A stretch of DNA of 64,000 nt, from the NCBI GenBank assembly GCA_007378985.1, contig VMHB01000001.1, positions 192,252-256,251 on the forward strand, written 5' to 3'. Positions 27,569 through 27,774 of the stretch are shown piece after piece (position 1 is the first letter of the stretch; each line of letters opens with the position of its first letter). A model generated the notes under the pieces. That model did no database searches, had not been told where the DNA came from, and saw only the letters and a list, made by a program, of their open reading frames with translations. A program made the translations under genes and the position numbers. Origin of the DNA: Parcubacteria group bacterium Greene0714_7. Its GTDB lineage: Bacteria; Patescibacteriota; Minisyncoccia; Phycocordibacterales; Phycocordibacteraceae.

Positions 27569-27774
27569 ATGGACATTGATTCTGCAAAACTGATTGGTAT
27601 GGCACTCGCCGCAGGTTTGGGTGTGCTTGGACCTGGTATTGGTATTGGTCTTATTGGAGGACGAGCCCTGATGCATCAGGCAAGATTATTCCAAACATGA
27701 TCCTTGCTATTGTTTTCACCGAAGCCTTGGGTATTCTCGCTTTGGTTGTGGCCTTTATCATCAAGTTCGTCTAA
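27569..27774 (+). pseudogene. atpE: F-type ATP synthase subunit c with an apparent internal frameshift and a short deletion in the polar loop
   Basis: The N-terminal helix [34 protein letters not shown] is in frame 1. The C-terminal helix [31 protein letters not shown] is in another frame. The ARQPE loop is missing and frame 1 ends at a TGA at 27698. Confidence 0.45.

Follow-up and report, generated by a model that had tools for sequence, protein, structure and literature searches.

The atpE gene of the window (the whole stretch of 64,000 nucleotides that was analysed) is a normal Candidatus Paceibacterota (CPR) gene from which 22 consecutive bases are missing. The deletion is private to this sequence record and its extent is exact. 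Considering its private status, the absence of SNPs around it and the frequency reported for such errors in uncurated CPR genomes, it is probably an assembly or sequence artefact. The gene has the following layout.

27569-27774, plus strand: atpE, between atpB and atpF
27569-27666, plus strand: 5' part of atpE, from codon 1 to the second base of codon 33
27666-27667, plus strand: deletion junction, where the 22 nt CATGGATGCAATAGGCCGAAAT found in all relatives are gone; placement ambiguous by 1 nt
27667-27774, plus strand: 3' part of atpE in frame 3, PDASGKII...FTEALG...FIIKFV and a stop
27667-27680, unstranded: perfect 14-nt palindrome CCTGATGCATCAGG, beginning at the first base past the junction
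27698-27700, plus strand: premature TGA that terminates the 43-aa frame-1 product

Translation from the ATG at 27569 gives 34 residues in frame 1, followed by MHQARLFQT and the TGA, and frame 3 carries a 36-residue helix-2 stretch that ends with a stop at 27772-27774. The 5' part matches the intact relatives at 100% and encodes helix 1 with its 11-residue glycine motif; the helix-2 carboxylate Glu is present in the 3' part, but out of frame with the start codon. The Pfam profile ATP-synt_C hits each piece on its own, the 5' ORF with profile positions 1-27 and the 3' piece with positions 34-60. With the intact protein of a relative as query, tblastn gave one HSP for residues 1-34 and another, in a different frame, for residues 40-75. 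These results bear out the original prediction that helix 1 and helix 2 are in different frames and that frame 1 stops at the TGA at 27698. The polar loop, also predicted to be missing, is indeed gone, as profile positions 28-33 have no counterpart in the window's atpE and AIGRNP is deleted with respect to the relatives. Two details of the same prediction had to be corrected: GGRAL and GKII are separated by 8 nt and not by about 20, and the L of GGRAL is not a native residue but the junction codon, the relatives having GGRAM at this place.

Compared with the features that define an F-type subunit c (PF00137), the gene lacks the single ORF for a two-helix hairpin and the R-Q/N-P polar loop; the glycine-rich helix 1 and the FTEALG carboxylate are both present in the DNA, though in different frames, and the position of the gene is the expected one, as the Pfam matches of its neighbours give the order atpB-atpE-atpF. 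As only a 43-residue helix-1 fragment is translatable, the window does not encode a functional c-ring subunit.

Alignment to the relatives revealed one clean gap of 22 nt between 27666 and 27667, instead of the single extra or missing base that had been expected. The loss of CATGGATGCAATAGGCCGAAAT corresponds to M34-N40 (M-D-A-I-G-R-N) plus one base, and thus takes the AIGRNP loop, the cytoplasmic polar loop that connects the helices, including the R and N of the R-N-P motif, and shifts the frame; the junction 31-mer of the deleted allele is GGAGGACGAGCCCTGATGCATCAGGCAAGAT. The missing 22-mer has no match elsewhere in the window with up to 3 mismatches allowed, and tblastn found no second c-subunit gene in the window. 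Microhomology at the junction, as read from the alignment, is 1 nt. We also considered and rejected two candidates for the way in which the bases were lost. A deletion between direct repeats would have used a GATGCA pair that lies 21 nt apart in the intact gene, out of register with a deletion of 22 nt, and a DNA hairpin across the deleted segment finds nothing special beyond the local palindrome, the intact region folding at z = +0.13.

Related contigs were fetched from a public gene index by the exact AtpF protein of the window. Exact matches were found on five contigs from five samples (ENA ERZ27284376, ERZ27254750, ERZ4902888 and ERZ28563808, and Logan SRR8863435), all carrying an intact atpE of 228 nt that encodes 75 aa; across 295 aligned columns, the 22-nt gap is the sole difference between these five (L001-L005) and the window. 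The comparison with relatives proposed at the outset gave the same answer throughout, since a single intact 75-aa ORF is present in 11 of the 11 distinct public contigs of related Candidatus Paceibacterota (12 fetched loci, L001 and L019 being the same ENA contig), and three of these 11 show no difference from the window in the flanking DNA that was compared. We also scanned two collections with a gap-tolerant pattern able to match either allele, GGTCTTATTGGAGGACGAGC-N{0,22}-CCTGATGCATCAGGCAAGATT. Matches came from two JGI metagenome contigs and from three GTDB species-representative MAGs, of which two are Candidatus Paceibacterota and the third is a "Patescibacteria group bacterium"; all five had the 63-nt length of the intact allele, and the deleted allele had zero matches in the two collections. 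The shortened 43-aa product has no entry in the public gene index, and the intact protein (P0001) is recorded there on 19 contigs. Moreover, the NUDIX protein of the window occurs on only two contigs, one from ENA and one from Logan, neither of which has the deletion where it covers atpE. The lesion is therefore found in one assembly, with independent assemblies of the same sequence intact.

The clade gives little room for variation in this protein. In the relatives L006-L010, whose DNA is 4-7% diverged, atpE has 1-5 nucleotide changes, all synonymous, and the protein is invariant. R-N-P is present in 120 of the 120 nearest homologue clusters, with AIGRNP in every loop variant among those printed, and GPGxG and the helix-2 Glu have a spacing of 38 in each of the 109 sequences in which the pattern could measure it; in a hypothetical fusion product of the window it would be 32. 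Synonymous-only changes together with an invariant loop and spacing indicate that atpE is under strong purifying selection in the clade. According to work of the Fillingame laboratory, it is reportedly through the polar loop that the c subunit contacts the gamma/epsilon foot of F1. The conservation of this loop, RQPD in other bacteria, has been described (PMC5376962), in a paper that cites the Fillingame work.

All the other atp genes are intact, as had been claimed for the operon, and the rest of the operon does not differ from that of the intact relatives; the order atpB-E-F-H-A-G-D-C is the same in the window and in the relatives.

26708-27460, plus strand: atpB (a subunit), Pfam ATP-synt_A; intact, same as in relatives
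27803-28249, plus strand: atpF (b subunit), Pfam ATP-synt_B; intact
28256-33547, plus strand: atpH, atpA, atpG, atpD and atpC; intact, 100% identical to the ENA contig
31355-31528 and 31533-31724: two ORFs in the atpG-atpD spacer, of 57 aa and of 63 aa (Gly/Arg-rich)

Two subunits are short. The delta subunit (28256-28639) has only 127 aa, covering OSCP profile positions 56-168, and the epsilon subunit (33317-33547) has only 76 aa, consisting of the beta-sandwich domain without the C-terminal helices. Because the relatives have the same lengths, we consider this a trait of the lineage and not damage.

Two further observations concern atpG. Its first 14 codons (MSLKDIKLKIKSVD) are present twice, at 30309-30350 and at 30404-30445, 95 nt apart, and the two copies differ at 10 nucleotides, all synonymous. 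The upstream copy starts a 34-aa ORF, which runs into the start of atpG and ends at 30413. This arrangement is kept in L001, L002 and JAGOSG01 (L017), was not found in L008, and may be a relic of recombinational replacement of the 5' end of atpG or a leader ORF. The spacer between atpG and atpD (31322-31782) has 461 nt and contains the two small ORFs listed above, for which neither Pfam nor Rfam gave a match; its RNA fold is ordinary (z = +0.3). As the spacer is only 71-76 nt long in L017 and L008, the longer form represents a lineage-specific insertion in the atp operon.

We asked how the window compares with an ENA contig over nearly its whole length. Four overlapping pieces of the ENA contig ERZ27284376:k119_636176 were merged and compared with window positions 617-64000. 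Over these 63.4 kb there are 0 real SNPs, and the two sequences differ in three places only: two deletions from the window, of 22 nt in atpE and of 81 nt at 24209/24210, and a copy-number change of 42 nt in a tandem repeat; five apparent mismatches all fall inside that repeat (about 26383-26429). The Logan SRR8863435 contigs are likewise 100% identical to the window over about 43 kb, except for the 22 nt. Two private deletions, each of which breaks a gene, thus lie 3.4 kb apart in a window with 0 point differences.

The second private deletion has removed the beginning of a tRNA gene, of which the following is left.

24209-24257, plus strand: remnant of tRNA-Arg(CCG), the 3' 49 nt left after the 81-nt deletion at 24209/24210

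In the ENA contig, the 81 nt, which the window lacks in comparison with other contigs as well, comprise the 5' 25 nt of tRNA-Arg(CCG) and a hairpin in the intergenic DNA. Neither ARAGORN nor Rfam called a tRNA-Arg at the remnant, and Rfam, run over the whole window at gathering thresholds, found four tRNAs and nothing else. The junction adjoins the inverted repeat of the anticodon stem (TCTCC-CTCCGAA-GGAGA, 24210-24226). CGG, the sole codon read by this tRNA, is used at 3.9 per 1000 codons. As the Logan contigs break between 23870 and 24808, they offer no independent check of this junction.

This part of the window has other variable sites. The segment 24210-24860, which follows the tRNA cluster, shows little conservation or cannot be aligned in L003, L006 and L007, relatives of 93-96% identity that align well on both flanks. 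It is a strain-variable spot, where the Logan contigs break too. Further along, a 21/42-nt tandem repeat (26341-26476) lies in the ORF 26062-26580 and encodes acidic EDVEGIQEDIEEIT units of a 172-aa protein; the window has one more 42-nt unit than the otherwise identical ENA contig, and the Logan contigs also break there. On the other side, an ATP-citrate-lyase-like gene pair occupies 20622-23652, the first gene having Citrate_synth_N and Citrate_bind domains and the second Ligase_CoA and Citrate_synt. Such a pair is unexpected, as the Paceibacterota (CPR) lineage is usually described as being without a TCA cycle.

Two explanations are rejected on these results. One, a programmed frameshift in the original prediction, is that -1/+2 ribosomal frameshifting or bypassing fuses both frames into a functional c subunit with a short loop. 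Frame 3 is open from 27580 on, so that a -1 shift anywhere before 27698 would give a fusion protein, and the ORF contains one formal X_XXY_YYZ heptamer, T_TTG_GGT at 27616. This heptamer, the only one in the ORF when slippery sites were looked for as had been proposed, lies 50 nt upstream of the junction, in helix 1, where a shift would destroy the glycine motif, and it is also present in the intact alleles. A scan between 27640 and 27700 found no slippery sequence and no homopolymer of at least 4 bases, and the RNA of 27640-27760 folds at z = -1.0, with 26 of 200 shuffles folding at least as well. Moreover, seven codons are physically absent, which a frameshift or a hop cannot recreate, and the missing 22-mer is nowhere else in the window; any fusion would be without seven residues, including the R and N that all 120 homologue clusters have, and the relatives with identical flanks need no shift, as they have a single 75-aa ORF. 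Therefore, none of the marks of programmed -1 frameshifting (a heptamer at the junction, a downstream structure, a conserved two-frame arrangement) is present, and we reject recoding as highly improbable. Even less credit can be given to an old pseudogene in a degenerating atp operon. The disruption of atpE and the short delta and epsilon subunits might point in this direction, but these subunits are equally short in relatives with an intact atpE and, the single deletion aside, atpE and all the genes that flank it match the intact versions at 100%. Since nothing else has changed, there has been no time for decay; neither multiple lesions nor relaxed constraint is seen, and the rest of the operon has no differences.

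The choice is thus between an artefact and a very recent mutation, all other readings together being very improbable. In the former case, the deletion would belong to the record and not to the organism, as a local artefact of the assembly, consensus or scaffold-gap type. In natural divergence, substitutions far outnumber deletions of 20 nt or more, and two gene-breaking deletions of at least 20 nt with 0 SNPs are unlike this pattern; this, together with the independent and otherwise base-identical assemblies that do not have the lesion, favours the artefact. In a 1.13-Mb CPR genome, 13 local assembly errors were found, and uncurated errors of this type are said to spread wrong protein-coding sequences (Chen et al. 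2020, PMC7111523). Their density, about 1 per 87 kb, is comparable to the 2 per 64 kb of the window. The alternative is a genuine null allele. The 22 bp would have been lost in vivo, with replication slippage or template switching at the palindrome as examples of a mechanism, and the deleted form would be the majority in the sampled population or cell; such a strain would have neither a functional F-type ATPase nor tRNA-Arg(CCG). We consider it possible but unlikely. In its favour, the atpE junction is exactly at the foot of the perfect palindrome and the second private deletion is at the foot of the tRNA anticodon stem; inverted repeats start at only 1.0-1.8% of window positions, giving a joint chance of about 1-3e-4, a value calculated post hoc. 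That both junctions abut inverted repeats suggests a shared physical template-switch process rather than random error, although template switching could have been replication slippage in vivo or, equally, an in-vitro effect of amplification or sequencing near hairpins.

Other considerations on the null allele point both ways. The junction may exist in real molecules, as it is rare for a short-read assembler to invent one, and the output of De Bruijn graph assemblers is normally limited to k-mers that occur in the reads. Loss of the tRNA would concern only the rare CGG codons, and a U34 isoacceptor elsewhere in the genome could cover them. CPR bacteria are fermentative, and loss of the F-ATPase could be tolerated. 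Against a null allele, the deleted form is in no other public contig, including those of otherwise identical samples, and 63 kb with 0 SNPs contain two deletions that each remove 20 nt or more from a conserved gene. Moreover, the protein sequence of the c subunit does not vary within the clade, and the other seven atp genes show no secondary decay.

The stronger version of this scenario, in which a clonal Paceibacterota (CPR) lineage has just lost its c-ring and tRNA-Arg(CCG) through hairpin-guided deletions, is somewhat more doubtful still. The role of the F-ATPase in CPR bacteria without a respiratory chain is still debated. If the deletions were real, an uncultivated symbiont would provide a natural ATPase knockout, of modest interest: the enzyme would be dispensable for a symbiotic bacterium, and a hairpin-directed deletion process in the genome would be hinted at. 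For quality control, the record taken at face value leads to a genome annotated without a c subunit and one arginine tRNA, distorting metabolic inference.

The case can be compared with several known systems. With programmed -1 frameshifting of the dnaX or IS-element type, it shares two overlapping frames in one gene; it differs by having no heptamer at the overlap, no stimulatory structure and no conservation, and by a product without the essential loop. The two private deletions resemble palindrome- or hairpin-associated deletion mutagenesis in that each ends where a perfect inverted repeat begins, whereas classical hairpin deletions use flanking direct repeats of several bases and here the microhomology is only 1 nt and the palindrome is retained. 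The errors described by Chen et al. 2020 (Genome Res, PMC7111523) are similarly isolated, gene-breaking and private to one CPR assembly, but were defined by the fact that no read perfectly supported the consensus, and the lesion of the window is known from assembled sequence. Finally, with the AtpE of Paceibacterota/Patescibacteria (PF00137; P0001, "ATP synthase F0 subunit C", EPO14_00790), the window has in common the glycine motif, FTEALG and the operon order; compared with L001-L005, its atpE is nucleotide-identical outside the 22-nt gap, with helix 2 out of frame. The atpE of the window is thus an ordinary Paceibacterota gene with a lesion, and not a new c-subunit variant.
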